Shown here: positions 1 through 40,184 of the stretch, piece by piece
Layout of the letters: the number at the start of each line of letters is the position of its first letter
Numbering within the stretch: position 1 is the first letter of the stretch
Virus record (IMG/VR): IMGVR_UViG_2703718787_000017
Reading direction: 5' to 3' (one strand)
Length of the DNA stretch: 64,000 nucleotides
Source: a virus
Lineage: Duplodnaviria > Heunggongvirae > Uroviricota > Caudoviricetes
Made by a program: the position numbers and the translations under genes
Notes under the pieces: model-generated
What the model was told of the DNA's origin: nothing
Database searches by the model: none
What the model saw: only the letters and a program-made list of their open reading frames with translations

Positions 1-1
1 T

Positions 2-154: not shown

Positions 155-163
155 GGAGGAAAT

Positions 164-415: not shown

Positions 416-425
416 GGAGTGGTGA

Positions 426-1691: not shown

Positions 1692-1724
1692 TTCACGATA
1701 TTCCATTAATACCATTTCCTGATG

Positions 1725-1749
1725 CCCGGCCATTGTGCCGGGTTTTTTT
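1725..1749 (+). terminator. rho-independent terminator-like hairpin (CCCGGC-cattgt-GCCGGG followed by T7 run)
   Basis: GC stem plus U-run between the 421-aa gene and the giant gene; may act as attenuator. Confidence 0.5.
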
Positions 1750-1760
1750 ATGGAGTCTGT

Positions 1761-7700: not shown

Positions 7701-10142
7701 GCGCATATCGCGAAAATCAACCCGAAAATGCCGGACGGCGGTTCGGGGATGACCAACGCGGAGGCGGCGGAAATCATGCAGCGTGTACGTAACAGCGGCA
7801 AACAGGCACAGTATGACCGTCTGGCAGGGATTGTTGACGATATGCTGGCCCGTCGCCGTGAGCTTATCCGTGAGGCAGGACTGGAAGAGAGCGGCGTGGT
7901 GGATGCCTGGCAGAAAGCCTACCGTTACTACGTTCCCCTGAAAGGGCAGGATGTTGACGGTGTGGTGTCACTGCCACGTACAGGCAAGGGATTCACCATC
8001 GGCGGGCGTGAAAGTAAGCAGGCCATGGGGCGCGCATCCCGCGCACAGTCTCCTTCCACTCAGGCGATACAGGATTTGAGCGAATCACTGATCCGCAATC
8101 GCAAAAATGAAGTGGGTAACGCCTTCCTGAAACTGGTACAGGATAATCCCGACAAGGATTACTGGCAGGTATTCACCGATGACAGACCGGATACCATGCG
8201 GACGATTGCAGAGCGCAAGGACAAGGAAACTGGTGAAACCATTCGCGAAGTTGTCGAACGCCCTGTACCGATGGCAATGATGGCAGACCGGTACTTCACC
8301 ACCAAAAAGAACGGCAAAACGTACTACATCAAACTCCATGATCCGCGCCTGATGCGTGCGATGAAGAATATGGGACCGGAAACCAGTAACGCCGTAATCC
8401 GCACGCTGGGGAAAGTTAACCGCTTCCTGGCAACGGTGAACACGTCGTATAACCCGGAATTCCTGGTCAGTAACTTCATCCGTGACGTACAGACGGCGGT
8501 GATGAACCTGAAGGCGGAGCAGGGAAGGAGCGACGGCAAACTGAAAGGGCTGGATAACTTATCCGCACTGGCTGTGGTGAAAGACAGTCGGTCTGCCATG
8601 TCTGCCGTATACGCCAGTCTGCGTGGTAAAACCCTCACGGGCAACGGTGCGCAGTGGCAGAAGGTGTGGAAAGAGTTTGTTGAGGACGGAGGTAAAACCG
8701 GCTGGTTTAACATGGGTGACCTTGAAGGCCAGCAGAAGGAAATGGATCGCCTTGTATCGCTGGCGAAGGGAGGATGGAAAGGCCAGAGTATCGGTGCATG
8801 GAATTCGTTCCTTAACCTTGTCGAGGATGCCAACGGGGCGGTTGAAAACGCTCTGCGTCTTTCTGCCTATAAACACGCCCGTGATGCCGGTTTGTCACGC
8901 CAGCAGGCGGCGTCTCTTGCCAAAAACATGACGGTGAACTTTAACCGTCGTGGTGAGCAGGGGGCGCTGATGAACTCGCTGTACATGTTCGCCAACGCCA
9001 GTATTCAGGGAACGGCAAATCTGGTGAGAACGCTCGGACATCTTAATGGTGAGGGACCTTTACTGGAGCGCCTTCGCTGGAAGAATCTGAATGTTCCGCA
9101 GAAAATCGCGCTTGCCGCTGTGGGAGCGGGTTATCTGCTTGGCTCGCTTAACCGCAGCGTGGCGGGTGAGGATGATGACGGGGTTAACTGGTATGACAAA
9201 GTACCGTCTCATGTGAAAGAGCGTAACCTCGTCATTATGAAATCGGTGTTCGGGGGCAAGGCCGGAGAGTACTGGAGTATTCCTCTGCCTTACGGGTACA
9301 ACGTTTTCTTCCTGCTTGGTCACACAGCCGAAGGGGTGGCAGCGGGCGACCTGACCGCTTCACGTGCTGCCGGTAATGTTGTTGGTGGTGTGCTTGGGGC
9401 ATTCAGTCCTGTGGGCAGTGAAACGTCGGAAACACTGTCCGGGGCATTGCTGAAAAATGCAGCGCCGACCATTCTGCGTCCGTTTGCGAACCTTGCCATG
9501 AATGAAAACTTCATGGGGGCGCAGATTTACCAGGAGAACATGCCGTTTGGTACACCAAAACCTGACAGCCAGCTGGGAAGACGTTCAACGCCAGAAGCGT
9601 ACAAGGCGTTTGCATCCTGGCTGAATGCGTTCTCAGGTGGCAGCCAGTACCGTCCCGGCGCGGTGGATATCACACCGGAATCGCTGAAATTCTGGATTGA
9701 CTATATCTCCGGAGGGACAGGGCGCTTCATTTCCAAAACCACGGATGCGGCGGTGAAATCGCTGAATGGTATTGATATACCGGAACAGCAGGTGCCCTTC
9801 CTGGGGAAAATTTCGGGGGAGGTGATGCCGTATGCAGACCAGCAGAAGATGTACGACCGGATGACAGAGATTGCGCAGTATCACGCAGAGCTGAAGAGTC
9901 TGACCGGTGCAGAAAGAACGGCGTTCATTGACGAGAACAACGGAAAATTGTCGATGAACGGGCTTATGCAGGATACCCGGAAGAGACTGAAGGATTTGCG
10001 TAAACAGCGTGATGCCATTTATGCCGACAGTTCTCTCAGTCTGGCGCAGCAGGCGGCGATAGTGAAATCGGTAGAGCGGGATATGAAGGTTGCCGTGGAT
10101 CGCTTTAACCGCGAGTACAACAAAAAAGTGGGAGTGGATTAA
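1761..10142 (+). CDS. giant multidomain 'polyvalent-type' protein (about 2793 aa) with HExxH zincin-like motif (HEWFH at 5610-5624), second H-E-x-x-H-H motif near 6411, Pro/Glu-rich low-complexity linker and Gly/Ala-rich N- and C-terminal segments
   Basis: Single uninterrupted 8.4-kb frame; start ATG at 1761 preceded by GGAG; HExxH motif read directly; domain architecture otherwise unresolved without profile search. Confidence 0.8.
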   Translation: MAYSEEQRPEAQLGNQNRNSLNIQQPGETDSYEAFFSDPNRWKDNSTSFSLGDVLPTMGKGFAQSVRGTGEMARGLGDAMIQSPVKTGARILNEFSRMGLPGVATVQDIFAGGSRGADEVIDTLPDGKNAVTDTVGKGLKATGKAVSDGAEATDEWLTGKMSPGAVRALNTPMTEGYDDSAVWVAKGVNLIGALVPDMVAGGVAKKVGDVTLRKMLTAGLEKKYIAAGMQPERATALAAEAVDKKMPDLFQAGLITHSTASAQGQSAMAAADAVLNADYSELAQSPKFQQTFLSIDADPQHAQLTDRQKMDLAKERVADEVRAQLATDPELLAVNAMAAKLGDAQLFNLVTRGTAKTVKSGIVRNATEQGAINAAQGGYSRYQENTALRETAGMDVSPWEGVADATIEGAAFGAAMGAPSGAVAGYRGRRQAAEEAAMRDAETVQQDDAAPQPESVDPVAQHRESMQGMNREQLLEQYADADMATEGDASAAHRREAASQLLNELDEQAKRQAVMNELKAKPRSELLEEYRRLSQKEERTETEEQQFQAIREVIRPQQEVTPEAQSQPENAEDGNGSIYPTVRFRDPNEVRIEINGNGASRPAERIEKVRPDNRYFTDEKSAMGSDVFRNAAATGLKPSVVKKGETQYAVEMDNPAFSEDVATETINTLADGERIADADPMEQPAFMRDPRFRGFTGDDTEVQARLARGNVPTAEELVRSQMAEGDAGPTAQELTERPRLPAPGDIHPGQGYPLPGEVARTPDENQAGRGGRFTTTGEVKGQSFQKGQALAPENAAGRQGETLEGEMVRRGLPSPDAQNATAPVREGLPAPDITHNVRMPQPDQLPRTVRNSLPELAQQAEVRRQAGGNRDIPQPETIAPESETTVATDREATVRGGEVRGKKIEDFGEEIKGAAKHRYAQLAETLGKTLEDRDYVTQPLSKLFPKPDYAKLASEGADADTLAMIALYRSDIPVKTKHNTAGWGESVKKVRHSVSEMLNGTVSAKRLAEWMEGRMPSRYADTWQLLRTLPPSQMDKASAYRVVSGVYQAAGGKRYDPPQKLYSLRNKDNKGSNLFFSESRDELLAKAKVWFAEQEEKSQAKGDEKTAPSPDDKIRFDVYRNTRSGDIFIAYGKNKMRVRGGFKSASDARKYIDLHRDELVRHVKEMREISREEQRNATNRDRTGPERRKGDVSPEQFSDAFGFRGVQFGNYVESPRRQADLNRAYDSLHDLADVLNVPTKALSLNGRLGLAFGARGKGKAAAHYESGEVAINLTKGNGPGALAHEWFHSLDNYFGRYDVSSDGKITSGGDFMTEAQRVRRIFKDGRYVDAEYPVRQEVYDAFKGVIQAIKNSDMPRRSALLDEVRSKPYWSTDVEMAARAFERYVQDKARMAGVENDYLVNIRKAPEHNTDNTYAYPTNAELDGGIREAFDHLFRTLKTRETDKGVAFYSRKGMTRTPEGNLISDVNRSAEAKGSPVPQVEAVARGVMSGIKDSDLTVRVVKSQKEAEALAGESFDGYGRVHAFYRPDKREIVLVADNIPDGQTVREKLRHEIIHHAMEHVVTPAEYQTIIKTVLKTRDSDNATIREAWRKVDASYGKESPEVQAGEFLAHMAEKQPNKFVAAWERVVALVKGVLRRTGLLKPTELNDIRLVRETIRTLGQRVREGYTPREDGVGASSQYSRSGKPDPFKVPEGEGERYRDDLARMMKSLRTTDLTVNIGRTPPVLRHLGAPDLPLVISRDTVRKATNGVKHVVPMDVIERLPELMHDPDAIYRSATERNAVVMLLDAVDKNGDPVVSAVHMKATQKLLEVNRIASVYGTENGKKLKSMETAGLTLYRREKLNPDGSLYRGLQLPKDEHSRQGSADKILYPEDIRKGPYYSRTSSLTPEETIASRFVRQMQDKFQVLKAVQENIRKTGGKIDDSNNAYMAEELFHGKAENDLNVMKERYVQPLAKLLADYKIAQADLDEYLYARHAPERNAHIAKINPKMPDGGSGMTNAEAAEIMQRVRNSGKQAQYDRLAGIVDDMLARRRELIREAGLEESGVVDAWQKAYRYYVPLKGQDVDGVVSLPRTGKGFTIGGRESKQAMGRASRAQSPSTQAIQDLSESLIRNRKNEVGNAFLKLVQDNPDKDYWQVFTDDRPDTMRTIAERKDKETGETIREVVERPVPMAMMADRYFTTKKNGKTYYIKLHDPRLMRAMKNMGPETSNAVIRTLGKVNRFLATVNTSYNPEFLVSNFIRDVQTAVMNLKAEQGRSDGKLKGLDNLSALAVVKDSRSAMSAVYASLRGKTLTGNGAQWQKVWKEFVEDGGKTGWFNMGDLEGQQKEMDRLVSLAKGGWKGQSIGAWNSFLNLVEDANGAVENALRLSAYKHARDAGLSRQQAASLAKNMTVNFNRRGEQGALMNSLYMFANASIQGTANLVRTLGHLNGEGPLLERLRWKNLNVPQKIALAAVGAGYLLGSLNRSVAGEDDDGVNWYDKVPSHVKERNLVIMKSVFGGKAGEYWSIPLPYGYNVFFLLGHTAEGVAAGDLTASRAAGNVVGGVLGAFSPVGSETSETLSGALLKNAAPTILRPFANLAMNENFMGAQIYQENMPFGTPKPDSQLGRRSTPEAYKAFASWLNAFSGGSQYRPGAVDITPESLKFWIDYISGGTGRFISKTTDAAVKSLNGIDIPEQQVPFLGKISGEVMPYADQQKMYDRMTEIAQYHAELKSLTGAERTAFIDENNGKLSMNGLMQDTRKRLKDLRKQRDAIYADSSLSLAQQAAIVKSVERDMKVAVDRFNREYNKKVGVD

Positions 10143-10265
10143 CAGAAATGGCCCCGTACGGAAGTGCGGGGCTGATTAAGGAATAAACACACATTAACCT
10201 GTAATAACCGGAGCTATTAACATATAGTCAGAAAGAGTATTTCATGTGAGACAGAGAGCCGATTT

Positions 10266-10457
10266 ATGTTTAATGAAGAAAAAGTTGCGCAAATGGCAGC
10301 GTATTTGCTGAAAAAGCATGGCGGATCTATGCGTTTCATTAAGCTGATGAAGCTGATGTATCTCTCTGACCGCAAAGCAATGGAGTCTTTAACCGGGAAG
10401 GGGAGAGGTTTGAATGCTCCCCCACAATTCCCCGGCATCAAATCTCCATGCAGGTGA
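10266..10457 (+). pseudogene. possible N-terminal remnant of a DUF4065/Panacea-like gene
   Basis: 63-aa ORF; motif MAAYLLKK...IKLMKLMYLSDRKAME resembles the N-terminus of that family from memory; frame then collapses; weak RBS. Confidence 0.25.
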
Positions 10458-10543
10458 ACTATTTTACCCCCAGCGGCAAATCGCAAAAACAATCAGTGCG
10501 ATCGAAATGGCAGCCACTACAATTGCAAATGCTTCAGGCTAGG

Positions 10544-11470
10544 TCATTGGCTTACCTCCTTCGGCGGTTCTGGTAGCGGCATCCAGTGGGTTACTTCTTT
10601 GAGATGCAGGTCTTCGCCATCACCGTCATCCCAAGTGGGATTGCCATCATTAAACCAGTCGCCATATACGCCGACCTGAGTGTTGGGGATGCTTGGTGGG
10701 TAGTTGTTTTTAAAGTCAGCTGCTAACACATAGTATTGTCGCTCTCCCATTTCTGGCATTCGATCACTACAGCTTATCCAACCATCCGGAGTTACCGGAA
10801 CTGGCGGAACGGCTGTTTGCTCTCGAACGTCATTAGTCGCTATCGGTTCTGCTGCCAACTGACTGGCATATTTGTTAATGGTAACGATAAGCTCTTGCTC
10901 AGCCTCATCCAGACAATCACCGATACCTCGCCTGTCACCGTCAAAATCATCGAAATCGGCACGAATCTTGGCAACCTTCTGGATTGCGGACAACACCTCA
11001 CTAGGAATTACCGGATAGTTGGTTGACGTTTCCGCGATTTCCCGAAAATTATTGGTTGACGAATTCTTGTTTTCCCGAAAGTTTCCGGACTGAAGCATGG
11101 CGGCGCGGCAGGCATTCCAGCCTCTTACCTCTGCAATAGCGGCAACCGCATCAACCGCGTACATGCTAAGAGGATTAGGCATTGGTTTTTCTTCCGGTAC
11201 TACTGGTGCTGGAGGGGCGGCGTAAATGCCCTCTATCACTAAATGTTTGCGCTCAAAATCATCTGGCTCTCGATGATATACGTAACTCCAATCACCAAGG
11301 TTATCATTGCGCCTGCAACGGAAACCTATCGGCTCGGCTTCCAGCGCTGCCAGAGCAATTCGTGCCAGTTCTTCCGCTTCTTCTGCTGGCAGTACAACGT
11401 TGCTACCAGGTCCGTATGTTTCGCGCCACTGCTTGATTGTCAGTAGTCGCTCTTTGGTAATAGTGATCAT
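10544..11470 (-). CDS. lambdoid early-region protein with C-terminal DUF551-like segment (…HWMPLPEPP)
   Basis: 308-aa ORF; C-terminal motif typical of phage DUF551 proteins; start overlaps upstream gene stop (coupling). Confidence 0.7.
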   Translation of the reverse strand: MITITKERLLTIKQWRETYGPGSNVVLPAEEAEELARIALAALEAEPIGFRCRRNDNLGDWSYVYHREPDDFERKHLVIEGIYAAPPAPVVPEEKPMPNPLSMYAVDAVAAIAEVRGWNACRAAMLQSGNFRENKNSSTNNFREIAETSTNYPVIPSEVLSAIQKVAKIRADFDDFDGDRRGIGDCLDEAEQELIVTINKYASQLAAEPIATNDVREQTAVPPVPVTPDGWISCSDRMPEMGERQYYVLAADFKNNYPPSIPNTQVGVYGDWFNDGNPTWDDGDGEDLHLKEVTHWMPLPEPPKEVSQ

Positions 11471-11982
11471 GCCGCGTTTCCTTCTTTCTTATTAACAATT
11501 ACACCGTCATATATTTCATTAAGGTGCCCTCTCAACTCCATGCGCCTTAATGCAGATAACATGTAATCGCATTCAACCTGCTTATTCCCAATAAAAGGTT
11601 TATCTTCAGGGTTACCCCAACAGCAATTCCCCTTGGGCCATCCATGTACTTTCCGTACTCTTCCGTTAACAACGTGAAGTAATCCCCAGCCAGGTGGTAA
11701 ATCCTCAATTGAAATAATTCCCGGCTCACTAATAAAGAATCGCCAGTCGCCCATTCCAAGAGACGGATTTTTACGAAAACGCTTTTTTCTATCTGCCAAC
11801 AAGTCAGCACGAGAACATTTCGCCTCTATCAGGCATGATGCTGAATTTCTGAATCCCATAGCATCTGGCTGTTCTCCGGTACTGGTTACAGCTATAAAGC
11901 GGTCATGAAAACAAACCTTGAACCCGCTGCGCTTAAGGAACTTGTACGCAATCTGACAGAGTTCGCGGTGTGTTAACGCCAT
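11467..11982 (-). CDS. hypothetical phage protein (about 171 aa)
   Basis: ORF in operon with flanking minus-strand genes; start ATG 1 nt after upstream stop. Confidence 0.55.
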   Translation of the reverse strand: MALTHRELCQIAYKFLKRSGFKVCFHDRFIAVTSTGEQPDAMGFRNSASCLIEAKCSRADLLADRKKRFRKNPSLGMGDWRFFISEPGIISIEDLPPGWGLLHVVNGRVRKVHGWPKGNCCWGNPEDKPFIGNKQVECDYMLSALRRMELRGHLNEIYDGVIVNKKEGNAA

Positions 11983-11983
11983 A

Positions 11984-12934
11984 TCACTCTCCTTTGATGC
12001 GAATGCCAGCAAGCCAGTTTCTTATGCCGATATATTCAGCGTTCCGGAAACCGCTTTTTACATATATAAATGGCAAGCGAAGATTGTGACCATTGACTGC
12101 CAGGTAGTCTTTACAACCCTGTTCGGTGAAACAGCAGGTAACGAATTCATCAATATCTTTCACAGCAACGCGCCGCCATTTTTCTGGTGGCTCTCGAAAG
12201 TTTTCATGAAGTAGCTCGAGACGACGACTATGGCGTTTATTGGCTTCATTGCCATCTTCGTCAACCCAGACAATCCGGTCATGGTCATAATCAGCATCAA
12301 CAACGATTTCGCGCTTTTGATACACACAAAACATGGGATCTGACGTTATTCGATTGTCCTGTGTTCGAATATTTTCACCGATGATGCCAAACGAATCTGG
12401 TGCAGATTTTGTCTGCATCTCTTCGATACGTTCAGCCATCGCAGCACACTCTTCAAAGTTGCTTAATGCTTTTCGCTCCCATTCGGCGCATTGTTTTTCC
12501 AGTTCTGCTATGCGCTTACTTCCATCCGCGATTACTCCCTCGTAATATTCACGCTGCTCGTTGAGTTTTGATTTTGCTGTTTCAAGCTCAACGCGCAGCT
12601 TCCCTACCGTAAGCGCAATATCCTCGTTCTCCTGGTCGCGGCGTTTGATGTATTGCTGGTTTCTTTCCCGTTCATCCAGCAGTGCCAGCACGGTAGCCGG
12701 ATTGGCTGCGGCGATGAATTCAGCATTGGCCTGCTGTTCCATTTGGAAATCTTCATCGAAACCGCTTTCAGGATGTGCTCCTTCAATTCTGCAAATGGGA
12801 ATATATCCAGCAGCCTCGCGATGAATTAGTGCATCATCACCATCAAATCGGTTCTCTCCATATTCGAGCGACCACTCACCACGCGTTGCTTTTTCTGCCT
12901 TTTCACGCAGTACCTGATAGTTAATCTCGCTCAT
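11984..12934 (-). CDS. Ea22-like lambdoid early protein (coiled-coil; N-terminus MSEINYQ…ATRGEWS)
   Basis: N-terminal sequence resembles lambda Ea22-family proteins from memory; GGAG upstream of ATG at 12934. Confidence 0.65.
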   Translation of the reverse strand: MSEINYQVLREKAEKATRGEWSLEYGENRFDGDDALIHREAAGYIPICRIEGAHPESGFDEDFQMEQQANAEFIAAANPATVLALLDERERNQQYIKRRDQENEDIALTVGKLRVELETAKSKLNEQREYYEGVIADGSKRIAELEKQCAEWERKALSNFEECAAMAERIEEMQTKSAPDSFGIIGENIRTQDNRITSDPMFCVYQKREIVVDADYDHDRIVWVDEDGNEANKRHSRRLELLHENFREPPEKWRRVAVKDIDEFVTCCFTEQGCKDYLAVNGHNLRLPFIYVKSGFRNAEYIGIRNWLAGIRIKGE

Positions 12935-13205
12935 TTTTCTCTTCGCTCCGGTATACAAGAATTACAACGTCACCTCTGCTAATTACGCGAGCTGGATCTC
13001 CTGGCTCCATGCTGTCAATCCCGAAGGCTTCGGAAAACGCATTCATTGCCTTCTGGCGTTGATCCTGCTTACGGCATTTATTCCATTTTTTCAGTAACAA
13101 CAGCGATAGCCACCGCCCGGCGCAGAACATAATGTAAAAATAACCAAGAAGCGCCAGACCTGTGTTGAGGGCCGTATCGATCGTTATAGTGGTGTCTATG
13201 CTCAC
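12921..13205 (-). CDS. small hypothetical protein with one hydrophobic helix
   Basis: 94-aa ORF overlapping neighbours by a few nt in an operon-like arrangement. Confidence 0.45.
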   Translation of the reverse strand: MSIDTTITIDTALNTGLALLGYFYIMFCAGRWLSLLLLKKWNKCRKQDQRQKAMNAFSEAFGIDSMEPGDPARVISRGDVVILVYRSEEKNERD

Positions 13206-13423
13206 TTCACACCTCTCTGTTTGTTGATAAGTTCAATATCCTGCTGGCAACTGGCGCAAGTTCGGCATCCGCGAACAGCCTGGCGTCGCCGCTCATCTAT
13301 CGGATCGCCACACTCGCAACAATGAGTAGCAGATGGGGCATTACTTTCGGATTTGTATTTTTGCAGGGAGAGATTGCGCTGCAATTCTTCGATTTCAGCG
13401 GCATTGTCGATGATATCTGCCAT
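13202..13423 (-). CDS. TraR/DksA-family C4 zinc-finger protein
   Basis: 73 aa with CxxC…CxxC (CCECG…CRTCASC) pattern typical of phage TraR-like proteins. Confidence 0.7.
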   Translation of the reverse strand: MADIIDNAAEIEELQRNLSLQKYKSESNAPSATHCCECGDPIDERRRQAVRGCRTCASCQQDIELINKQRGVK

Positions 13424-13470
13424 TTTCCTTTCCTTCAGGCATGAAAAAAGGAGCCGAAGCTCCTTTGGTA

Positions 13471-14094
13471 TCAGAATTCAAATTGTCTTGCTCTTAGTTG
13501 CGCTAGCATACTTCTGGCCCTATGCACCATATAGTTGGCGGGATCAAGTTTTGCTGCTTCGCGGAGCAATGTGTCGCGAGTCCGGTTGGTTATATGACGA
13601 GTCTCGTAGGCCAGATCAAACAGTTTCCCGTAGTAATCAGAATTCAGTTCTCTCATGACGGGGTATAGCTGCTTACTGAGTTGTTGTGCTTTTTCCATCC
13701 AGAGTTGAACGTAGCAGAGCAGGATGATGTCTTCTGCTGTGAATTGCTGCTCAGTTTGTACTGGCTGAATGTTGCGAAGTTTCTTTTCGCACTCGATGAA
13801 GTATCGGCGTATCTGGCGGCCTTTTTCGTTACGTTCAACCATCGCAAGCTCTTTGGCTGTGTCGAGGGTGAGGTGGTAATCCTTGCGGCGGCGGCCTGGA
13901 GTTTTCGCCAAATTTGGCGAAAATAGAATGTAGTCTAAATTTTCTACGAATCCATACTCGTTTAGCTTGGCCCGTATCCAGTTAGAAAAATCTTTACCTA
14001 CCTCTAAAAATCCATGCAAATCACGCGCGTTCACCAGAAGCGTAGGTTCATTTGAGATTGTACCTTCAAACACAGGGATGAGTTGAGTGGTCAT
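13471..14094 (-). CDS. phage antirepressor (AntA-type N-terminal domain plus C-terminal domain)
   Basis: MTTQLIPVF…ARDLH…YHLTLDTAKE motif set; strong RBS AAAGGAGG; upstream in-frame extension rejected. Confidence 0.8.
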   Translation of the reverse strand: MTTQLIPVFEGTISNEPTLLVNARDLHGFLEVGKDFSNWIRAKLNEYGFVENLDYILFSPNLAKTPGRRRKDYHLTLDTAKELAMVERNEKGRQIRRYFIECEKKLRNIQPVQTEQQFTAEDIILLCYVQLWMEKAQQLSKQLYPVMRELNSDYYGKLFDLAYETRHITNRTRDTLLREAAKLDPANYMVHRARSMLAQLRARQFEF

Positions 14095-18675: not shown

Positions 18676-18736
18676 CCATTGTCAGACGGATGGATGGACT
18701 TGAAGTAGTTGACTCAATGCTACTTAAGGTCCTGAT

Positions 18737-20341
18737 ATGACTGACATTAACCATGATAATACTGTATGTCCATCCAGTTCTTTCTCTGGGTCTCCCTATC
18801 TGTATCAGCAAGTCTGCACCTCAAGTCCTGACACAAGGCTGACACAAATCAATATACTCAGCGTAGCTAAGCCTCAGTTAGTCCGTAGAGCCAATGGTCG
18901 ATATACTATCCGCTTCAGACTCAAGGGACAGACCATCCCGTTTCTTTCAGTATCGACCCGAAGCACAGACAGGAGAGTAGCCACAATGCGTCAGAGAGAG
19001 CTTGCAGCCACAGCTAAGACATTCCTACTAGACAAGCCTGAAGTTTCGCTACAGGAGCTTACAGAGCACCTCCGGTCTATGGCTGAGCAGTTCCTGACAG
19101 ACGCCAGTGATGACTACTGGAATGGACTTGAGGTCGCTACTCTGGTGGACGAGAAGTCCAACCTGAAGGAGCTAGCCGCTACGCAAGCCTTGAGTCTGGA
19201 CCAGCAGAAGGGCATAAGGTTAGCGCTTGAAGTCCTGACCGCAGCACAGCAGAGGGTAGACACTGGTGATGCCTCTGGTCTGATTAAGCTGATTGATGAT
19301 AATAACCATACTGATTACTCAACTATAGGCGACTATACGTCCATTCTGAAGAATGAGCAGGGGGATAGACCAGCAGTTTTCACACAGGTTACTGCTCCTT
19401 GCAGTCACAGCGAGCGTCAGCCATCTGTGGTTTTTTCAAGCCTAGTGTCCTCGCTGCTGGCTGAGAAGGTCCAGACCCTGAAGTCCTCCAGCTACAAGGA
19501 CCTGTCGTCCTCACTGAATACCGTCTCTCGGTTCTTACCTGAAGACATGGACCTGATGTCCCGCTCTGAGTGGCTGGCTGTCAGGGACTCTATGCTTGCT
19601 TCTGAGGTGAGACCATCGACAATCAACAAGCTGCTGACCAAAGCGAAGATGTGTCTCGATTATGGCCTGATGAATGGGCAACTTGAGGGCCGCAACCCTA
19701 TTGAACGGATGAAGCTGACCAAGGATATCGACTCCAAGCGCAGAGCGTTCACAGACGAGGAGCTGGATGGACTTCTTGTCCGGGTAGAGGCTGAGTATCA
19801 GTTCACACGACATACCGCTCACACGACCTCTGAGGCTCGCAGGTGGGCGACTCTGGTCTCTGTGGTCACTGGCGCTCGGTCTGCTGAGGTCTGCCACCTG
19901 ACTAAACGTGACATTGTAACCTTGGACAATGGACTGGTCTGTATCGACATCAATGAAGATGGGGGCGGGAAGTCCGTAAAGAACAAGCATTCAGTCCGAC
20001 TTGTACCGCTGACCGATGGCGCTTATGGGTTTGACCTGAAGTCCTTCCTCGAATGGGTAGACATGCAGCCTGACGAGGGTCCTCTCTTCGGGATGACTCC
20101 AAGCGCATACTCTAGCTGGTTTAACTCAAGGGTCCTCACAGAGGCTCTCCCAGACGCTGAGAACGTCTCTCTACACAGTCTGAGACATTGGCTGGCGACC
20201 CGGATGAAAGAGCGTGGAGTCAATCTGGTGGACGCTCAGGGCATCTTAGGTCACAGCAGTCAGTCCATTACGTATGACCTGTACGGGAAAGGACATGCAG
20301 TTGGTAGGCTGGCTGATGTGCTGAAGACAGCTTTACTTTAA
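18737..20341 (+). CDS. tyrosine recombinase (integrase), 534 aa with extended N-terminal region
   Basis: C-terminal catalytic pattern: …GARSAEVCHL… (Arg), HSLRHWLATR (His-x-x-Arg), ITYDLYGK (Tyr); gene sits just inside the left repeat. Confidence 0.85.
   Translation: MTDINHDNTVCPSSSFSGSPYLYQQVCTSSPDTRLTQINILSVAKPQLVRRANGRYTIRFRLKGQTIPFLSVSTRSTDRRVATMRQRELAATAKTFLLDKPEVSLQELTEHLRSMAEQFLTDASDDYWNGLEVATLVDEKSNLKELAATQALSLDQQKGIRLALEVLTAAQQRVDTGDASGLIKLIDDNNHTDYSTIGDYTSILKNEQGDRPAVFTQVTAPCSHSERQPSVVFSSLVSSLLAEKVQTLKSSSYKDLSSSLNTVSRFLPEDMDLMSRSEWLAVRDSMLASEVRPSTINKLLTKAKMCLDYGLMNGQLEGRNPIERMKLTKDIDSKRRAFTDEELDGLLVRVEAEYQFTRHTAHTTSEARRWATLVSVVTGARSAEVCHLTKRDIVTLDNGLVCIDINEDGGGKSVKNKHSVRLVPLTDGAYGFDLKSFLEWVDMQPDEGPLFGMTPSAYSSWFNSRVLTEALPDAENVSLHSLRHWLATRMKERGVNLVDAQGILGHSSQSITYDLYGKGHAVGRLADVLKTALL
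18829..18850. repeat. two direct copies of TGACACAA (putative integrase arm-type sites, left end)
   Basis: CTGACACAAGGCTGACACAAAT; same motif appears three times near the right end. Confidence 0.45.
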
Positions 20342-20554
20342 GTAGGAAGACCCAAGGTGTAGACCATATACGGCTTGATGGTTGAACCTTGGGTCGCTGA
20401 AGTCTGACTGAAGTTAGGGAGGGTGATAATAATCATAATCCCTCCTGACTATAGGCCCACTGGTTCGCCTTCGGCTGTCCGACTCTAAGTCTGTATGTGG
20501 TCTTATTTAAACTGGTTCCCTAACTCCAGTACTCCAAATTCCTATGGTCTCCTC

Positions 20555-20760
20555 TTGACATTCCTGTTTAACTGTGAGTCGCCTCTGGTCTCTCTTTATA
20601 TATACTTCCTTAATTCCTGAGGCGTCTTTAGTCCTTGACATTCGGTCCAACCTGTGAGTCACATCCGGTCCTCCCTCTATATATATACTTCCTTAATTCC
20701 TAGGGTCGCCTTAATCCTTGACATCCAGTCCAACCTGTGAGTCACATCCTGTCGCTAGCA
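20555..20760 (+). repeat. about 80-bp tandem repeat, 3 units, each with TTGACA, inverted repeat TGTGA-G-TCACA and a TATATATA block; candidate host-RNAP promoter/operator array
   Basis: TTGACA at 20555, 20635, 20718; units align over most of their length; third unit diverges at its 3' end. Confidence 0.6.
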
Positions 20761-20799
20761 AGCTAGCTGTCGCGCTACTGTATGCATCACCAGTGGTGG

Positions 20800-20822
20800 A
20801 CTTGATTATCACTATAGGGGAA
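20800..20822 (+). promoter_or_regulatory. T7-group single-subunit RNAP promoter-like 23-mer ACTTGATTATCACTATAGGGGAA (predicted +1 at G 20817)
   Basis: Positions -8 to +3 identical to T7 consensus TCACTATAGGG; upstream -17 to -9 differs from T7/T3/SP6; lies 30 nt upstream of an RBS and ATG. Confidence 0.5.
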
Positions 20823-20851
20823 CCAACTAATTCAACTACAGGAGATACTCT

Positions 20852-21220
20852 ATGGCACGACCAATCGCAACTCACGACAACACGTTCACCAAAGCCTACT
20901 TGCAGCAGCACTGCGGGGACCTGCTGTCATTCGATGGTCAGGGCGACCTGAGTGGTTGGCTGGATGATGTCCTTACTGGTGCTGGTCGCCTGAACGAATC
21001 AATGGCAAGCAATACCAAGCCTGTCAGCCCATACTTGATTCTGACCCAACTACTAACGCACGACACATTAACTGTAAGCGCTGTGCAGGAGTCCCTGAGC
21101 CGTAAGCGTGTCGCCTTGGGTGAACCTATGGTTTCAACTCGCTACGCTCGCTACGTCTATGCTACCGTCGTCAGCGCCAGTAAATCCGTCCAGTACCACG
21201 CCAGTAAAGCTGGTTCATGA
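20852..21220 (+). CDS. hypothetical protein (122 aa), first gene downstream of promoter-like site 1
   Basis: ORF with AGGAG 8 nt upstream of ATG; no family recognised. Confidence 0.6.
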   Translation: MARPIATHDNTFTKAYLQQHCGDLLSFDGQGDLSGWLDDVLTGAGRLNESMASNTKPVSPYLILTQLLTHDTLTVSAVQESLSRKRVALGEPMVSTRYARYVYATVVSASKSVQYHASKAGS

Positions 21221-21228
21221 TTACGGAC

Positions 21229-21251
21229 CCTAAACTATCACTATAGGGAAG
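21229..21251 (+). promoter_or_regulatory. second T7-group RNAP promoter-like 23-mer CCTAAACTATCACTATAGGGAAG (predicted +1 at G 21246)
   Basis: Shares ATCACTATAGGG with site 1; same -8 to +3 core as T7 consensus. Confidence 0.5.
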
Positions 21252-21781
21252 AGCAGCCTCCACCTCTGGTCTTGATGCGTCAAGTTATGCGGAAGCTCTC
21301 CCGACATTAAGTATCTCTCCTAAGCAATCAAGGTCTGTGACCGCCTCTGTCATTCCTGCATCCCGTGAGTGTTCTTCTGTCGTCTCGGTTAGTAGCTCGT
21401 CTACTCACTACACTGACTTAAGTCTATCAGCACCTACCAGATGCACGCCTGACATGCGGTCCCGCCTTATATGCACATGGAGAACATGGTCCAAATGTAG
21501 CCTACGAAATTTTCGTAAGCTTCGGGCAGGACCAAGGCTGGTAGAAGTCTAACCAACCCAGAAAACGGGTTTGTTAAAAAGATTAACATGGGTCACTTAG
21601 GGCAGGACGCTTCTCTACCGTCCCGCCTTTATTGACACCTGCAGGAAATCATGGTCATCCCCGACCAATCAAATCAACCCTATTCACTTTCGTAAGCACT
21701 TTCGGCGGCTCCATTTGGTAGCGCTGAATAGGTGTGGAGACCCGCAGGGGAACGAGAGTGCTTTCTAAAGGAGCTACCTTA
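21252..21781 (+). other. 530-nt apparently untranslated leader with internal repeats (TCCCGCCTT x2; TTCGTAAGC-N-CTTCGG x2); possible structured RNA, processing sites or replication origin
   Basis: No convincing ORF with RBS (the 71-aa ORF at 21337 is Ser-rich with no SD); repeats read directly. Confidence 0.3.
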
Positions 21782-22873
21782 ATGAACATCCATAAATTCA
21801 TCGACATGAACGAAGTCATCGCCAGCAATCATCCTCTTGCCAAAGGTACCACTGACAGCGTAACGCAGGTCATCGTGTCACACCTGAAGTCCGGCGATGC
21901 AGGTATCGACATCCTGAATGCGCCTAAGGCCGCTAGCGATATGTCTGCCAGCTTCCTGAATGACTTGAAGAGCAAGTATCGTGTCGTGGCTGGTCATAAC
22001 TCTGAGGGTCACATTGATGCATGGCTGGCGCATAAGCACAGCGGACGCCGGGTGACGACTAAAAGCAATGACAAGGGTTATCGCGCTGTGAGCGTGAATG
22101 GTCGCCCGTATCAGGAGCACCGCCTTATCGTGGCCCTGTTCTATGATGTGGCACTGCCGGGCTGGGTGGTAGTTAATCACGCTGTGTCCTGCACCATTTG
22201 GAACGAAGGCAAATCAAACCATCCGTTCAACCTCCGATTAACGACATCATATGGTAACCAGCTTGATAAGAAGGTCCGCGAAGGTGTTCGCAATAAGTTC
22301 ACCGGGTACTACTTCGATGAATATCGTGGCAAGTGGCGCGTCCAGATGAAGCGGCCTTTCGCTGGTGGTCCGCAGCATTTCGGCATGTACGACACCGAAG
22401 CTGAGGCCTACATTGTCCGCTGCGCTGTCCTCCACCAGCATCTTGGTGCGTTCTGGGCGATGACCACCGGGGAATCCGGTCTCGTGCCCCGAGTCAAACC
22501 TGACGGTTCTCTGGTACTGCCTACTGAGCATGGTTACGATTGGGCGGAAAACCTGCCTTATCCTGAGGACTGGGACGACGAGTTCAAGGCCCGGCTGGAG
22601 GAGATGAAGCTGTACTGGGACGCATATCATGTGTTCGGTATTGAAGACGAAGAATACTTCGGCGACTGTGTGTCAGGGCTTGATGTGAACGCAGTAGTGT
22701 TCAACGGCGTGCCTGCCATTATCGACATCACAGAAGGACTTCCGGTGTCATATGCTCACTGGTTCGGACCAAGCCAACGCTTCGAGTTCACCAACTACTA
22801 CCAGCGCTGCATTCACGCCTGTGACCTTGATGCGGAACCTGAAGAGGAAGACTGGATGGAGAACGATTTCTGA
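21782..22873 (+). CDS. HNH endonuclease with AP2-type DNA-binding domain (homing-endonuclease-like)
   Basis: YQEHRLIVALFYD…VVNH motif (HNH) followed by RLTTSYGN…YYFDEYRGKWRVQM…FGMYDTEAEA (AP2-like); RBS AAAGGAG. Confidence 0.75.
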   Translation: MNIHKFIDMNEVIASNHPLAKGTTDSVTQVIVSHLKSGDAGIDILNAPKAASDMSASFLNDLKSKYRVVAGHNSEGHIDAWLAHKHSGRRVTTKSNDKGYRAVSVNGRPYQEHRLIVALFYDVALPGWVVVNHAVSCTIWNEGKSNHPFNLRLTTSYGNQLDKKVREGVRNKFTGYYFDEYRGKWRVQMKRPFAGGPQHFGMYDTEAEAYIVRCAVLHQHLGAFWAMTTGESGLVPRVKPDGSLVLPTEHGYDWAENLPYPEDWDDEFKARLEEMKLYWDAYHVFGIEDEEYFGDCVSGLDVNAVVFNGVPAIIDITEGLPVSYAHWFGPSQRFEFTNYYQRCIHACDLDAEPEEEDWMENDF

Positions 22874-23085
22874 TGACAATTAAACAGCATATCGACCCTC
22901 GCACCGATATCGGCAGGGCAACACTTCGTTATCGTGGTCTGCCTACTCGTCATCTTCTGTCAATGCTGGGGATGGGTACTGATTCATCCGAGCGCCCTTA
23001 CTACAATCGAGACGAGCTGATAGCAATGCTGGTGGACCGTGATTTGAATAATCAGTTGCGTCGAGCCTTTGCTAAGCAGTCCTGA
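22873..23085 (+). CDS. hypothetical protein (70 aa)
   Basis: ATG overlaps stop of upstream gene (TGATG coupling). Confidence 0.5.
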   Translation: MTIKQHIDPRTDIGRATLRYRGLPTRHLLSMLGMGTDSSERPYYNRDELIAMLVDRDLNNQLRRAFAKQS

Positions 23086-23208
23086 CCATACCACCTTAAT
23101 TTAAACACCTTTTGAGAATGACCGATGCGGGGAGACCGTAGGCATAACTGTGTCTGCGATACCGATAGTTCTCACCTTCTCAAGAGGAGTAATTACTATG
23201 TCTAGCAA

Positions 23209-23707
23209 AGCTAGTGCGTTATTCAACAACAACGACTGGAAACTGTCTGTCACCGACATCAATCTCTATGAAAATACTGTGAATCTGGATGGGCAGTCCT
23301 ACCCGTTGTCTCTGGCTATCAAGACCCTCATTCCGGGCTACCTGTCAGGCTTACCGTCCACCAGCAGCGCGGCGATGGAGCTGTTAGAGGCTCTGGCTGA
23401 AGCTGGTGTAGCTATTGGCAACTTCTTCAGTAATGACCTGATGACCGCCTATGGTCGCCGCCAGCAGAACAAGCGAGCTGAGGCTGAGCGTATCGCTAAA
23501 GAGCAGCGCATTCAGGCCGAGCGCATGCGTGAAGAGAACATGACTGATGCAGAGTGGCAGAAAGAGCTACAGCGCCGCGAACAGGTCAAAGCTGAACGCC
23601 GGACCTATGGTGAGAACCTCCGCAGTGCTACCCATTCCGCTGGTCGCTCCCGTGCCGCTATTGTCGCTGACATTGAGTCAGGCGGTAACTGGATGGACAG
23701 CCTCTAA
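23209..23707 (+). CDS. hypothetical protein (166 aa) with charged coiled-coil C-terminal half
   Basis: RBS AGAGGAG 9 nt upstream of ATG; no family recognised; scaffold-like composition is speculation. Confidence 0.6.
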
Positions 23708-23781
23708 GACAGACACACAAGTGGTCCTGACCTGATGTCGGGACCCACAGTATCTAAAACTAATTTAGGAGATTGATTATT

Positions 23782-24771
23782 ATGACCATGATTAAAGATA
23801 GCTATCAGTTCGGCATTGAGCCAGTACGTATCACCGACACCGACAACATTCAGGTAAACGAAGGTCTTCCGACTAACGCCGACCCTCAGGTCTATGCCTT
23901 CCAGTTAGCTAAGCTGGTGAAGACCATGCTCAATTCTGTACTTAAAGACGCTCAGGATAACATTCCGTTCCCTGTAGAAGTCCTGCCAGCTCGCAACAGC
24001 TTACCGACGCCAATCATTGCTCACACTCTGGCTGACCGCTCTGTGGTCGTTCCTGTCCGTGGTGGTAAACGACCTGAAGTCGTGACCGCTCCGTCTGGTA
24101 CTGAAATCACCGTTGAGCCGATTGAGCAAGCTATCCTCGTGTCCCACCAAACCAAGCTATGGGACGCTAAGTCATCCACCGGATTCACTCAGGGCACACT
24201 TCAGCAGGACGCTATGAACATCTGTGAGAATGTGGTCCGTACCATCAACGCTCGCATGGTCGACGTTCTGGAGTCCTCCAAACTGTTGAAGACCGTAGAG
24301 CTTCCTGTCCTGACTGGTAGCCTGACCGCTAAGGCAGACGATATCATGGACGCTCTGTATGACAACACCGAGTCCTCTTTCGGCTCTGAAGTGTCTGATT
24401 ATGGCATCATCGCCCATGAGTCCCAACTGAAAGCGCTGTCCCGTCTGGCTGCTAAACAGGGCTTCTCTGGTGAAGACGCTATCGTGGATATGCTGGGAAC
24501 AGACATCGCCTACTACAACGGTGAAGACAAGGGTGTGTTCATGCTGGCTAAACGCTTCACGGCCCTGAGCTTCGGTTGCTTCCGTCATGATGGCGAGAAC
24601 ATTACCGTGGTCTTATCCCGGGATGGTGACTCTCAGTCTAACTCTCTGGAAATCCTCGGCAAGGTCTTCGTGGTTGCTGAAGCTGCTACGACAATCAAGA
24701 TGGGTACTGGTAGTGCTACTGCTGTCCTGCCTGTAGTCAAACGCCTGAAGTTCACCAAGACCGAAGCGTAA
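23782..24771 (+). CDS. hypothetical protein (329 aa); structural (capsid-like) role possible but unverified
   Basis: RBS TTAGGAG upstream; largest non-enzymatic ORF of the island. Confidence 0.65.
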   Translation: MTMIKDSYQFGIEPVRITDTDNIQVNEGLPTNADPQVYAFQLAKLVKTMLNSVLKDAQDNIPFPVEVLPARNSLPTPIIAHTLADRSVVVPVRGGKRPEVVTAPSGTEITVEPIEQAILVSHQTKLWDAKSSTGFTQGTLQQDAMNICENVVRTINARMVDVLESSKLLKTVELPVLTGSLTAKADDIMDALYDNTESSFGSEVSDYGIIAHESQLKALSRLAAKQGFSGEDAIVDMLGTDIAYYNGEDKGVFMLAKRFTALSFGCFRHDGENITVVLSRDGDSQSNSLEILGKVFVVAEAATTIKMGTGSATAVLPVVKRLKFTKTEA

Positions 24772-24934
24772 GACCATGAGCAGAGGTAAGTCTGGACTGA
24801 ATATCAGCAGGACTTCAGGTGGTGGATTATCAATGTAATTAATAACTATGGTCTGGACTTCGGTCTGGACCTTATTAGCGAAGTTATCCACAGCTTAATA
24901 ACATATACAACTTTATTCACATTAAGGAGGACGC

Positions 24935-25018
24935 ATGGACCTGCATAAAGTCTATCTTATCGTCTTCCTGTTGAAGCTGGTGCTGGTGGTCGTGCTTACA
25001 GTCAGGGTACGGCTGTGA
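24935..25018 (+). CDS. small hydrophobic peptide (27 aa, MDLHKVYLIVFLLKLVLVVVLTVRVRL)
   Basis: Strong RBS TAAGGAGG 5 nt upstream; single predicted TM helix; too short to be in the ORF track. Confidence 0.3.
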   Translation: MDLHKVYLIVFLLKLVLVVVLTVRVRL

Positions 25019-25128
25019 GCTGGCGAGCAGCTAACGATGAGTTTTGGACCAAAAGTTAGAGACCTGATTCAATACAATTAAGACACCAATGTTCCCCGGT
25101 GCCACCCTGAGTCCAGACCGAGGCCACC

Positions 25129-25140
25129 GGGGGGGGGGGG
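25129..25140. repeat. homopolymeric G12 tract
   Basis: Twelve consecutive G read directly, near the island right end. Confidence 0.9.
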
Positions 25141-25170
25141 CTGACCAGCCGTCTAGACATCCCGTCTAAT

Positions 25171-25204
25171 GACACAAGGCTGACACAAAGCCTGACACAA
25201 AGTC
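25171..25204. repeat. three direct copies of TGACACAA(G/A) (putative integrase arm-type sites, right end)
   Basis: ATGACACAAGGCTGACACAAAGCCTGACACAAAG; mirrors the two copies at 18829-18850. Confidence 0.5.
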
Positions 25205-25257
25205 CTTGACTCAATGCAGGACCTCAGGCCTACTAAGGGTCCGCTTCAAGTCCTTGA

Positions 25258-39238: not shown

Positions 39239-40184
39239 ACGCCCACTGGTTATAAACACACAGCTTGCGATGAAGATTGGCTTAAATGAAGCCATTGTGT
39301 TGCAGCAGTTGCATTACTGGTTGAGAGATACCAATTCCGGTATGGAATGTGATGGTGTTCGCTGGATTTACAACACAACGGAACAATGGCTGGAACAGTT
39401 CCCATTCTGGTCAGAGTCAACGTTAAAGCGCGCGTTTGCAAGTCTGAAAACGCTGGGGCTTTTGCGTTGTGAAAAGCTCAATAAATCAAAGCGCGATATG
39501 ACCAATTTCTACACGATCAACTACGGGAGCGAGCTTTTAGATGATGGCAAATTGAGCGAATCCATCGGTTCAAAATGCGCCGCTCCATCAGGTCAAAATG
39601 ACACGATGGAAGAGGTCAAAATGAAACGCTCCATTGGTTCAAAACGATCCAATGTCATCGGGTCAAAATGGCCTGATGATCTTACAGAGAATACAACAGA
39701 GATTACTACAGAGAATAAAAACACTTTTCGTCCGGAAGCTTCGCAACCGGACCCGCAGACGACTGAACAGGATTTTTTAACCCGGAACTCCGACGCGGTT
39801 GTGTTTAGTGCGAAAAAACGCCAGTGGGGTAGCAGGGAGGATTTGGCGTGTGCGCAGTGGATCTGGGGGCGGATCGTGGGCCTCTACGAACAGGCAGCCA
39901 GTGATGATGGCGAGATCATGAGACCAAAAGAGCCTAACTGGACTGTCTGGGCCAATGACGTGCGCACAATGCGGATGCTGGATGGCAGAAGCCACAGACA
40001 AATTTGCGAAATGTTTGGTCGGGTTCAGCGAGATCCATTCTGGGTAAAAAACATCATGAGCCCGTCAAAGCTCCGCGAAAAATGGGACGAACTGGTCATC
40101 CGCCTGGGACGTTCACCTGTACAGCGTTGTGTTAATCATATTTCTGAACCGGATACAGAAATTCCGCCTGGTTTCAGAGGATAA
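39219..40184 (+). CDS. phage replication initiation protein (lambda O-like N-terminal domain) with internal origin iterons
   Basis: N-terminus …LVINTQLAMKIGLNEAIVLQQLHYWL…; five GGT(T)CAAAATG iterons inside the coding region. Confidence 0.8.
   Translation: MSLLFAERPLVINTQLAMKIGLNEAIVLQQLHYWLRDTNSGMECDGVRWIYNTTEQWLEQFPFWSESTLKRAFASLKTLGLLRCEKLNKSKRDMTNFYTINYGSELLDDGKLSESIGSKCAAPSGQNDTMEEVKMKRSIGSKRSNVIGSKWPDDLTENTTEITTENKNTFRPEASQPDPQTTEQDFLTRNSDAVVFSAKKRQWGSREDLACAQWIWGRIVGLYEQAASDDGEIMRPKEPNWTVWANDVRTMRMLDGRSHRQICEMFGRVQRDPFWVKNIMSPSKLREKWDELVIRLGRSPVQRCVNHISEPDTEIPPGFRG
39566..39670 (+). repeat. five direct iterons (consensus GGTCAAAATG) inside the O-like gene; putative replication origin
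   Basis: Repeats at about 39566, 39591, 39614, 39636, 39661. Confidence 0.6.

Follow-up and report, generated by a model that had tools for sequence, protein, structure and literature searches.

What do three tandem repeats of about 80 bp, each carrying the hexamer TTGACA, do upstream of two phage-type promoters in the 64-kb stretch of DNA analyzed here (IMG/VR record IMGVR_UViG_2703718787_000017; hereafter the window)? A preliminary description had compared the arrangement to the left end of T7-like genomes and had suggested that an inverted repeat within the units is an operator. We found that the window is E. coli chromosome and that the repeats lie on an integrated island of 6.5 kb. The repeats are real, old and maintained, and they are part of a phage-mimicking island that is best read, on its sequence, as a satellite of K1F-type (Kayfunavirus) phages. 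For the units themselves we favour, tentatively and with less than even confidence, the explanation that they are a host-RNA-polymerase promoter cluster of this integrative, phage-parasitising element, the counterpart of the A1-A3 promoters of T7, and that a LexA site is placed at the final unit.

The array occupies positions 20537-20760 of the window and comprises 2.9 units spaced 80 and 83 bp apart. The tandem ~80-bp repeats described earlier are thus confirmed, with a true start about 18 bp to the left of position 20555, where they had been taken to begin. The array has the following features:

20537..20611, + strand: repeat unit 1 (AATTCC...), with CTTCCTT after TATACT
20555-20560, + strand: TTGACA of unit 1
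20575-20580, + strand: TGAGTC of unit 1, in the context TGTGAGTCGCC, where the inverted repeat is broken
20597-20604, + strand: TATATATA of unit 1, overlapping TATACT at 20601-20606
20612..20694, + strand: repeat unit 2 (83 bp)
20635-20640, + strand: TTGACA of unit 2
20653-20663, + strand: inverted repeat TGTGAGTCACA of unit 2
20678-20687, + strand: (TA)5 / TATATATA of unit 2, with TATACT at 20684-20689
20695..~20760, + strand: repeat unit 3, truncated and without a TATA box
20718-20723, + strand: TTGACA of unit 3
20736-20746, + strand: inverted repeat TGTGAGTCACA of unit 3

Tandem Repeats Finder reported an array at 20592-20753 (period 83, 2.0 copies, 87% matches, score 252). A repeat search yielded three copies of a 37-nt core (at 20554, 20634 and 20717; copies 2 and 3 are 73% and 68% identical to copy 1) and an 82-nt repeat pair of 85% identity. 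The composite TTGACA-N14-TGAGTC matched three times in 64 kb, compared with 0.34 ± 0.57 times in shuffled sequences, and three matches were reached in none of 100 shuffles. TTGACA had been attributed to all repeats and is present in every unit (20555, 20635 and 20718). The same attribution holds for TATATATA in units 1 and 2 but fails in unit 3, which leads instead into a LexA-type box. TTGACA and TATATATA are 36-43 bp apart, in agreement with the earlier remark that their spacing is not that of a canonical sigma-70 promoter. After unit 3 the window carries an 18-bp polymorphic insertion, GCTAGCAAGCTAGCTGTC, which is missing from three related sequences (L002, L004 and L045).

The surroundings of the array match Kayfunavirus phages in both content and order. 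The downstream phage-type promoters proposed earlier are confirmed: the window contains exactly two copies of TCACTATAGGG, at 20809 and 21238, each on the + strand. The elements that bear on this comparison are:

18709..18720, + strand: left attachment core TTGACTCAATGC (12 bp), the left end of the island, inside ynfE
18796..18805, + strand: CTATCTGTAT, identical to the annotated concatemer-junction signal of phage EcoDS1
20417..20453, + strand: hairpin GGGAGGG-TGATAATAATCATAAT-CCCTCC plus CTGACTATA, with matches to phage sequence
20478..20536, + strand: GACTCTAAGTCTGTAT, which resembles the phage junction signal GAGTCTCTATCTGTAT by eye, plus a ~44-bp unit
20800..20822, + strand: phage-polymerase promoter 1, TGGACTTGATTATCACTATAGGGG, +1 at about 20817; closest match phiOR of EcoDS1 (21/23)
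20852..21220, + strand: gene for a helical protein of 122 amino acids (aa), the first of the module
21229..21251, + strand: phage-polymerase promoter 2, CCTAAACTATCACTATAGGGAAG, the exact Kayfunavirus consensus
25034..25064, + strand: pre-terminal-repeat stretch of 31 nt, 30/31 identical to the sequence just before the terminal repeat of EcoDS1 and phiYIO1-1
25065..25205, + strand: terminal-repeat-like stretch (..AGTCCAGACC.GAGGCC..), which continues over the attachment site to 18805 when excised
25206..25217, + strand: right attachment core TTGACTCAATGC, the same 12-bp core

The hairpin is identical to phiYIO1-1 at 32/32 positions (reverse strand) and to EcoDS1 at 22/24, and is located between phiOR and gene 19.5 in both phages. 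A short ATAGGCCC...TCTGTAT stretch resembles, by eye, the start and end of the phage terminal repeat. From left to right the island thus presents the phiOR-region hairpin, the ATAGGCCC...TCTGTAT stretch, short repeats, the TTGACA units, the phiOR-like promoter and the first gene. These are Kayfunavirus cis elements in phage order, and the comparison with the left end of T7-like genomes is supported. Promoter 2 in the form common to the island family, CTAAACTATCACTATAGGGAGACCA (L001-L003), has exact 25-nt matches to K1F, EcoDS1, CR44b and many Kayfunavirus promoters; the window version differs just past +1 (GGGAAGAG) and is exact to EcoDS1 promoters over 20 nt.

The excised form of the island was reconstructed in silico by joining its right and left ends. 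Their colinear alignment with the concatemer junction of the phages begins at the 31-mer, passes the terminal-repeat start and reaches CTATCTGTAT, with scores of 77 for EcoDS1 and 90 for phiYIO1-1 (null 23 ± 3.5, maximum 36). This alignment places the attachment site inside a mimic of the helper terminal repeat, a mimic that would be complete only in the excised or concatemeric form. The region 25034-25064 has matches of ~31-39 nt in 221 phage records, mostly of Kayfunavirus type, and in all related islands examined, those of Citrobacter, Kluyvera and Leclercia among them, CTATCTGTAT keeps a constant distance from the core. Helper-specific signals, comprising the Kayfunavirus promoters, the hairpin, and the junction and terminal-repeat mimic, are therefore present at the sequence level. 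Relatives found via the integrase and the 122-aa protein carry phage promoters of other specificities: an exact T3-type promoter in L046, a T7-type promoter in L050, other types in a Kluyvera locus, and paired promoters of two types in L005, L006 and L011. This pattern suggests that each related island may be tuned to its local helpers.

Several smaller observations concern the same elements. The promoters of the relatives lie at 2145-2172 and 2755-2777 in L046, 590-615 in L050, 8700-8850 in L009 and 6960-7000 in L005. The hairpin loop GGTGATAATAATCATAATC (20422-20440; L007 38634-38657; L052 40046-40077) is flipped between phiYIO1-1 and EcoDS1, as if at the stem, and agrees by eye at 15 of 19 positions with the 19-bp Fur-box consensus. 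A run of 12 G at 25129-25140 in the terminal-repeat-like stretch could vary by slippage. Within the integrase gene, 24 nt at 19388-19411 are identical to an insertion in the phiYIO1-1 terminal repeat (positions 68-91) that EcoDS1 lacks, which suggests that island and phage may have exchanged sequence. A 27-codon hydrophobic open reading frame (ORF), MDLHKVYLIVFLLKLVLVVVLTVRVRL, at 24936-25019 stands just before the junction mimic, the position held in the phages by the small membrane protein gp19.5. A 7.8-kb record named 'Enterococcus phage IME_EF3' matched the junction and was considered as a packaged island; it was rejected as a mislabelled partial Kayfunavirus genome. The record (L056; PQ520054.1, 7785 bp, 'Enterococcus phage IME_EF3, partial genome') has pieces 81-97% identical to EcoDS1 and appears mislabelled.

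The conservation of the units was assessed with diverged copies from contigs that encode homologues of the 122-aa protein at 80-89% identity. The footprint was compared over 15 unit copies from seven source sequences, and 12 distinct units were tabulated. TTGACA is invariant in all 15 copies, its longer invariant form being CTTGACAT(T). It is followed by 11-14 variable bases and by a conserved CTGAGTC(A), which is always 14 bp past TTGACA although the sequence in between is more than 50% diverged. Beyond CTGAGTC(A) come ~10 variable bases, then CTCTYTATATWTAYTTCCTTAATTCCT, and finally GTCTTTAGTCC, which runs into the next TTGACA. The 11-bp inverted repeat, described earlier as conserved, is exact in units 2 and 3 but not in unit 1, and the diverged relatives read TCTGAGTCACT or CCTGAGTCAGC at this place, so that only TGAGTCA is kept. 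In L046 and L050, whose homologues of the gene are 57-59% identical, a block resembling TATATATACT-KCC-KTAAYT persists upstream of these homologues.

Most strains have three units; two are found in L004, L010, L048 and L049, and one in L055. Hybrid units in L004 and L055 show unequal recombination, and the TA run differs in length between strains. Units within an array differ by 15-32%, whereas the same unit shows at most 3 differences over 96 nt among the E. coli islands compared, which indicates that the duplication is old and has been kept. Wherever units were found, a member of the 122-aa gene family accompanied them (13/13 loci), and they were absent from the five islands with another first gene that were checked. 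A search of 50,697 phage records yielded no unit homologues at E <= 10, and the repeat units are the sole part of the island without a recognisable phage template. Matches to CTTGACAT-N11-CTGTGAGTC in IMG/VR (2) and in Joint Genome Institute metagenomes (29) were rejected as single chance matches in which the flanking blocks are missing. The ~44-bp unit next to the array (GTCTTATTTAAACTGGTTCCCTAACTC...) has a single copy in the window, at 20497-20536, and is triplicated in L005. Islands without the 80-bp units carry another 44-bp unit, GGTGTCTTATTTAAACTGGTTCCCTAACTCAGGTCCTCCAACTT, in three tandem copies (L005 6160-6290).

The promoter reading is based on the position and orientation of the units, which follow the end signals and precede the phage promoters and the first gene, as do the early promoters of EcoDS1 and T7, and which are co-oriented with every gene of the island. 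The T7 promoters A1-A3 and the three annotated host promoters of EcoDS1 (469-800) are likewise three co-oriented tandem TTGAC[AT] elements, situated after terminal-repeat or junction signals and upstream of phage-polymerase promoters. Details of the units point in the same direction. All three contain an exact sigma-70 -35 hexamer, and TGAGTCA places its TG precisely where an extended -10 belongs if the spacer is 17 bp. With an 18-bp spacer the hexamer is TCAnnT, with the first T in 12/12 distinct units and the last T in 11/12 (the exception is the truncated L048_U2). The spacers of units 2 and 3 agree at 10-11/17 positions with the A1-type early promoter of T7, EcoDS1 and phiYIO1-1, more than any of 87 control TTGAC[AT] sites.

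A number of results weigh against promoter function. The spacer similarity is modest: about 0.4% of arbitrary positions reach an identity of at least 10/17, and the comparisons depend on one another. In the range of 16-19 bp after TTGACA, every unit lacks a -10 hexamer that combines A at -11 with T at -7; the hexamers found there are GTCACA (17 bp) and TCACAT (18 bp), with C or T as the -11 base. A scan with the consensus promoter found nothing in the units, and their weight-matrix score of 8.8 compares with 10.8-13.0 for the T7 and EcoDS1 control promoters and with a mean best score of 10.0 in shuffles. Between TTGACA and the TATA boxes there are 36-43 bp, and the boxes differ in length from strain to strain. 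Two of the relatives, L045 and L048, bear units but not the LexA box that follows the array, and in the window the 18-bp insertion moves this box to 58 bp from the start of the last TTGACA, about +22. The array also differs from the T7 and EcoDS1 early promoters in its period (80-83 bp versus ~125-155 bp), in the missing consensus -10 at 16-19 bp, in the LexA box after the last unit, and in its location on a chromosomal integrase island, separated from the junction signal by 1.75 kb that include the integrase gene.

Other promoter assignments within the array were considered. A hexamer of -10 quality is present in units 1 and 2, as TATACT here and as TATATT in other strains, but the -35 that precedes it by 16-18 bp, TCGCCT or GTCACA, is weak. 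This gives the weaker alternative TCGCCT-N16-TATACT in unit 1 and, as the best such case, GTCACA-N16-TATATT in unit 2 of L002 (weight-matrix score 9.5); the homologous TATA block of the distant relative L046 reads TTGGCT-N16-TATACT and scores 10.5. Overall, the consensus scan and the weight matrix, run with T7 and EcoDS1 controls and with shuffles, yielded no convincing sigma-70 promoter on either strand of the units. Sigma-32, sigma-E, sigma-54 and sigma-S consensus sequences were considered by eye, as were IHF, DnaA, Fur, LacI and CRP sites, and none fits. A minus-strand TTGAAT-N19-GATAAT that overlies phage promoter 1 and faces the LexA box was rejected because its -35 and its distance from the box are not conserved in L049. 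Also set aside was the idea that GTGAGTCAC, which would lie beyond A3 in T7, is homologous to the unit core; chance alone would account for a shared 9-mer.

The LexA boxes connect the array with the regulation of the island. A weight matrix was built from 16 known E. coli boxes, which themselves score 16.7-27.9. The two best scores in the 64 kb are both within the island, 22.1 at 18760-18779 and 19.3 at 20776-20795, and these are the only two places in the window that match TACTGTAT-N7-CAGT, a pattern found in none of 100 shuffles. The relevant features are:

18732..18779, + strand: integrase promoter CTGATA-N17-GATAAT with LexA box 1, identified with the weight matrix
18760-18779, + strand: LexA box 1, TACTGTATGTCCATCCAGTT, directly after the -10 of the integrase promoter
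20776..20795, + strand: LexA box 2, TACTGTATGCATCACCAGTG, between unit 3 and phage promoter 1

Both boxes contain the CTG-N10-CAG core of LexA operators and score within the range of the known boxes. As in the SOS promoters of E. coli and of mobile elements, box 1 comes right after a good -10; all relatives have kept it, among them those from Citrobacter, Kluyvera and Leclercia. The integrase promoter and box 1 lie over position 18737, the start of the long integrase ORF, which is therefore probably not the real start codon. Box 2 is present in 9/11 distinct unit-bearing variants compared and reaches a score of 22 in L049. Its start is 38 bp from the start of the last TTGACA in the lineage of L049, L053 and L054, and 40 bp in L002 and L004, corresponding to about +2 to +4 of the predicted start in these five sequences. 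The distance from box 2 to the phage promoter, by contrast, is not conserved, which argues that the box belongs with the units. Unlike known SOS promoters, box 2 has no overlapping canonical promoter core, and its link to the units is the conserved distance.

Under the promoter reading, the units would work as follows. In the uninfected cell, LexA would hold rightward host transcription of the 122-aa gene module low, the last unit running into the LexA box at its predicted start point, and DNA damage would lift this repression. Host polymerase could then express the module without a phage polymerase, for example just after the DNA has entered a new cell. The unit promoters could also help to pull the DNA in, since DNA entry of the T7 type is driven by transcription. 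During infection, the two K1F-type promoters downstream would take over. We infer transcription initiation at the units, control by LexA and a role in entry from these sequence features.

The most serious rival, which we regard as doubtful, is that the units form a protein-binding array of iterons or operators that controls the module or marks the DNA for replication or packaging. The 122-aa gene product, another island protein or a helper protein such as the small terminase would be candidates for binding. Their contacts would be TTGACAT and TGAGTCA, two helical turns apart, and the period of 80-83 bp (~8 turns) would place all units on one face of the helix. Conserved blocks at fixed spacing without a usable -10 are what such an array predicts, and so is the restriction of the units to loci of the 122-aa gene family, which may however be mere linkage of adjoining DNA. 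The unit core CTTGACATTCGGTCCAACCT matches the EcoDS1 terminal repeat on the reverse strand at 18/20 positions, and the terminal repeat is the best match of unit 2 in the whole EcoDS1 genome, at borderline significance (score 30; null 23.5 ± 1.9, maximum 29). The matching strand reads TTGACC-N18-TAGACT and resembles a leftward host promoter. On the other hand, the palindrome has not been kept in the relatives, arrays with 1, 2 or 3 units all persist, homologues of the unit are missing from the phage records searched, and a perfect -35 and a TG placed as in an extended -10 would have to coincide by chance. Replication iterons, which are several direct repeats of 17-22 bp at ~22-bp spacing beside an AT-rich stretch and an initiator gene, do not match the period of the units, and Pfam, PHROGs and PADLOC recognised no initiator gene in the island. 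A role of the units in replication or packaging is also less favoured because the island offers better candidates, namely promoter 2 with a non-coding stretch of 490 bp behind it and the junction mimic. The operator for a dimeric regulator that had been suggested for the inverted repeat can be specified as a site for a host protein, CRP or a member of the LacI family, and this version is very improbable. TGTGA and TCACA are indeed CRP half-sites and the repeat is exact in two units; however, the half-sites are 1 bp apart and not 6 as in TGTGA-N6-TCACA, the repeat is broken in unit 1 and reduced to TGAGTCA in the relatives, and chance alone would produce 1.2 occurrences per window of an 11-mer with no more than one mismatch. 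The recognisable operator in this region is LexA box 2, which the earlier description does not mention.

It is unlikely, to our judgement, that the units are a tolerated duplication of promoter-like, phage-style non-coding DNA that at most adjusts the length of the element, similar to the short repeat arrays beside T7-group terminal repeats. Such a duplication would explain the copy number of 1-3 by unequal recombination, the variable TA run, the truncation of unit 3 and the insertion sequences that occur in the unit-bearing intergenic region of L043 and L044. Furthermore, the island measures 6.1-6.7 kb across strains, about one sixth of the 39-40.5-kb helper genome, and steps of 80 bp could matter for length alone. 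It would not explain why three blocks are conserved while the spacers diverge (window versus L048, L049, L053 and L054), why an old duplication has been kept, or why two diverged lineages have a LexA box joined to the last unit. A structured RNA or small peptides as products of the units are scarcely credible. A promoter-like CTGACTATAGG stands upstream of the units, which also allow several short ORFs, but these ORFs mostly lack an ATG start and no ribosome-binding sites were seen; the fold energies resemble those of shuffled sequences (z = -1.2 for the + strand and +0.7 for the - strand), the island has no Rfam matches, and the array region is pyrimidine-rich on the + strand (65% C+T). Two further functions were tried and discarded. 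Against integrase arm sites speak the distance of 1.8 kb between the units and the attachment core and the presence of real arm-type repeats, TGACACAARGC, on the flanks of the cores. T7-primase sites (GGGTC/TGGTC/GTGTC) number 3 in the units against 0.46 expected, but their enrichment is equal across the island. Throughout the island (18700-25220) these pentamers number 44 and 41 per strand against 19 expected, ~2.2-fold, a density of ~6.5 per kb per strand that is somewhat above that of EcoDS1 (4.5 per kb).

The reading of the island as a satellite of K1F-type phages agrees with its gene content and its ends. A ~6.5-kb insertion splits ynfE (selenate reductase) in every copy inspected, and a probe from 20300-21300 matches 134/5426 complete E. 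coli genomes (~2.5%), always in the chromosome. The distance from core to core is 6497 bp, and TGACACAARGC repeats stand beside both cores, those at 25170-25202 within the terminal-repeat-like stretch. The integrase gene is:

18737..20341, + strand: tyrosine integrase; true start probably downstream of the LexA box, 458-534 aa in RefSeq

It is followed by the 122-aa hypothetical protein, a variable middle gene (an AP2/HNH-like protein in the window, KilA-N proteins in other islands) and two conserved hypothetical proteins of ~165-185 and 329 aa. An integrase, attachment cores, small size and 4-5 other genes without matches to structural proteins are the attributes of a phage satellite. The 329-aa protein was considered as a capsid protein and rejected, as its structural model is too poor (predicted local distance difference test score 47) and the protein has no profile match to gp10A of EcoDS1; neither the PDB nor the phage records yielded a homologue. 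The 6661-bp contig L049 was examined as a possible circle and proved to be an integrated copy broken at flanking host repeats. The IMG/VR matches are contigs with numeric identifiers that, read as such, resemble predictions from isolate genomes; one of them contains the island, the LexA box and the junction signal as integrated, so that these matches are uninformative on packaging.

Satellites are well known for temperate phages, and few are known for virulent ones (ICP1/PLE and PICMI); the T7 group comprises the best-studied virulent phages. Our full-text literature searches found no description of a satellite of T7-group phages and none of the content of the ynfE element, which is listed as an integrative element in a genome-wide survey (PMC7192596). 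One of the closest known systems is PICMI, the minimalist satellites of virulent Vibrio phages, which are packaged as a concatemer of helper length, 8 x 6.1 kb (PMC10803314). Both are integrase islands of ~6 kb with very few genes, no recognisable capsid-remodelling genes and a virulent helper, here a proposed one, and six copies of 6.5 kb would likewise equal the helper genome here, at 39 kb; mobilisation of the island is a prediction from its sequence. The two systems share no gene, and AlpA and primase were not detected in the island. The island moreover has helper-polymerase promoters and a copy of the helper end junction, whereas the PICMI authors identified no cos or pac site (PMC10803314). 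T7 packages plasmids that bear its origin and concatemer junction, according to Chung and Hinkle (1990) as cited in PMC9860248. By that account, packaging of a small DNA by T7 requires the junction (PacB and PacC) together with either a phage promoter or an origin, and the island has natural counterparts of these parts. Such transducing plasmids are laboratory constructs, however, while the junction mimic of the island is split by the attachment site and complete only after excision.

In its most far-reaching form, the proposal describes the first satellite of a virulent T7-like coliphage. Such a satellite would sense its helper through the helper's promoters, hide its attachment site in a copy of the terminal repeat, from which the junction would arise only after excision, and travel as a concatemer in a K1F-type head, to be pulled into the next cell, where phage polymerase is lacking, by host-polymerase transcription from the three units, which would also express the first gene under SOS control. 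This combination is unlikely to hold in all its parts. The island would nevertheless offer a tractable E. coli system in which all T7-like cis signals (polymerase promoters, end junction, terminal repeat and early host promoters) are present in miniature on 6.5 kb. If the units are promoters, they provide a test of the idea that DNA delivered by T7-type capsids must carry host promoters for entry; should they instead bind a protein, they would be a lead to what an uncharacterised gene family does.

Some minor features remain to be mentioned. The ~490 bp at 21252-21733, after phage promoter 2, contain no ORF and are partly conserved in L005 and L006. This stretch holds a repeated GTCCCGCCTTWAT (~21457 and ~21622) and a TTGACA without a -10 (21633), and it is a candidate for an origin primed by the phage polymerase, similar to the primary origin of T7. 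Other prophage material flanks the island at 1-14000 and 32000-64000 of the window. It includes a gene for a 2806-aa LPD5-domain protein at 1722-10142, putative terminase and portal genes, judged by size, from 51.2 kb onwards, and a 23-bp tandem repeat of 3.2 copies at 39561-39634.

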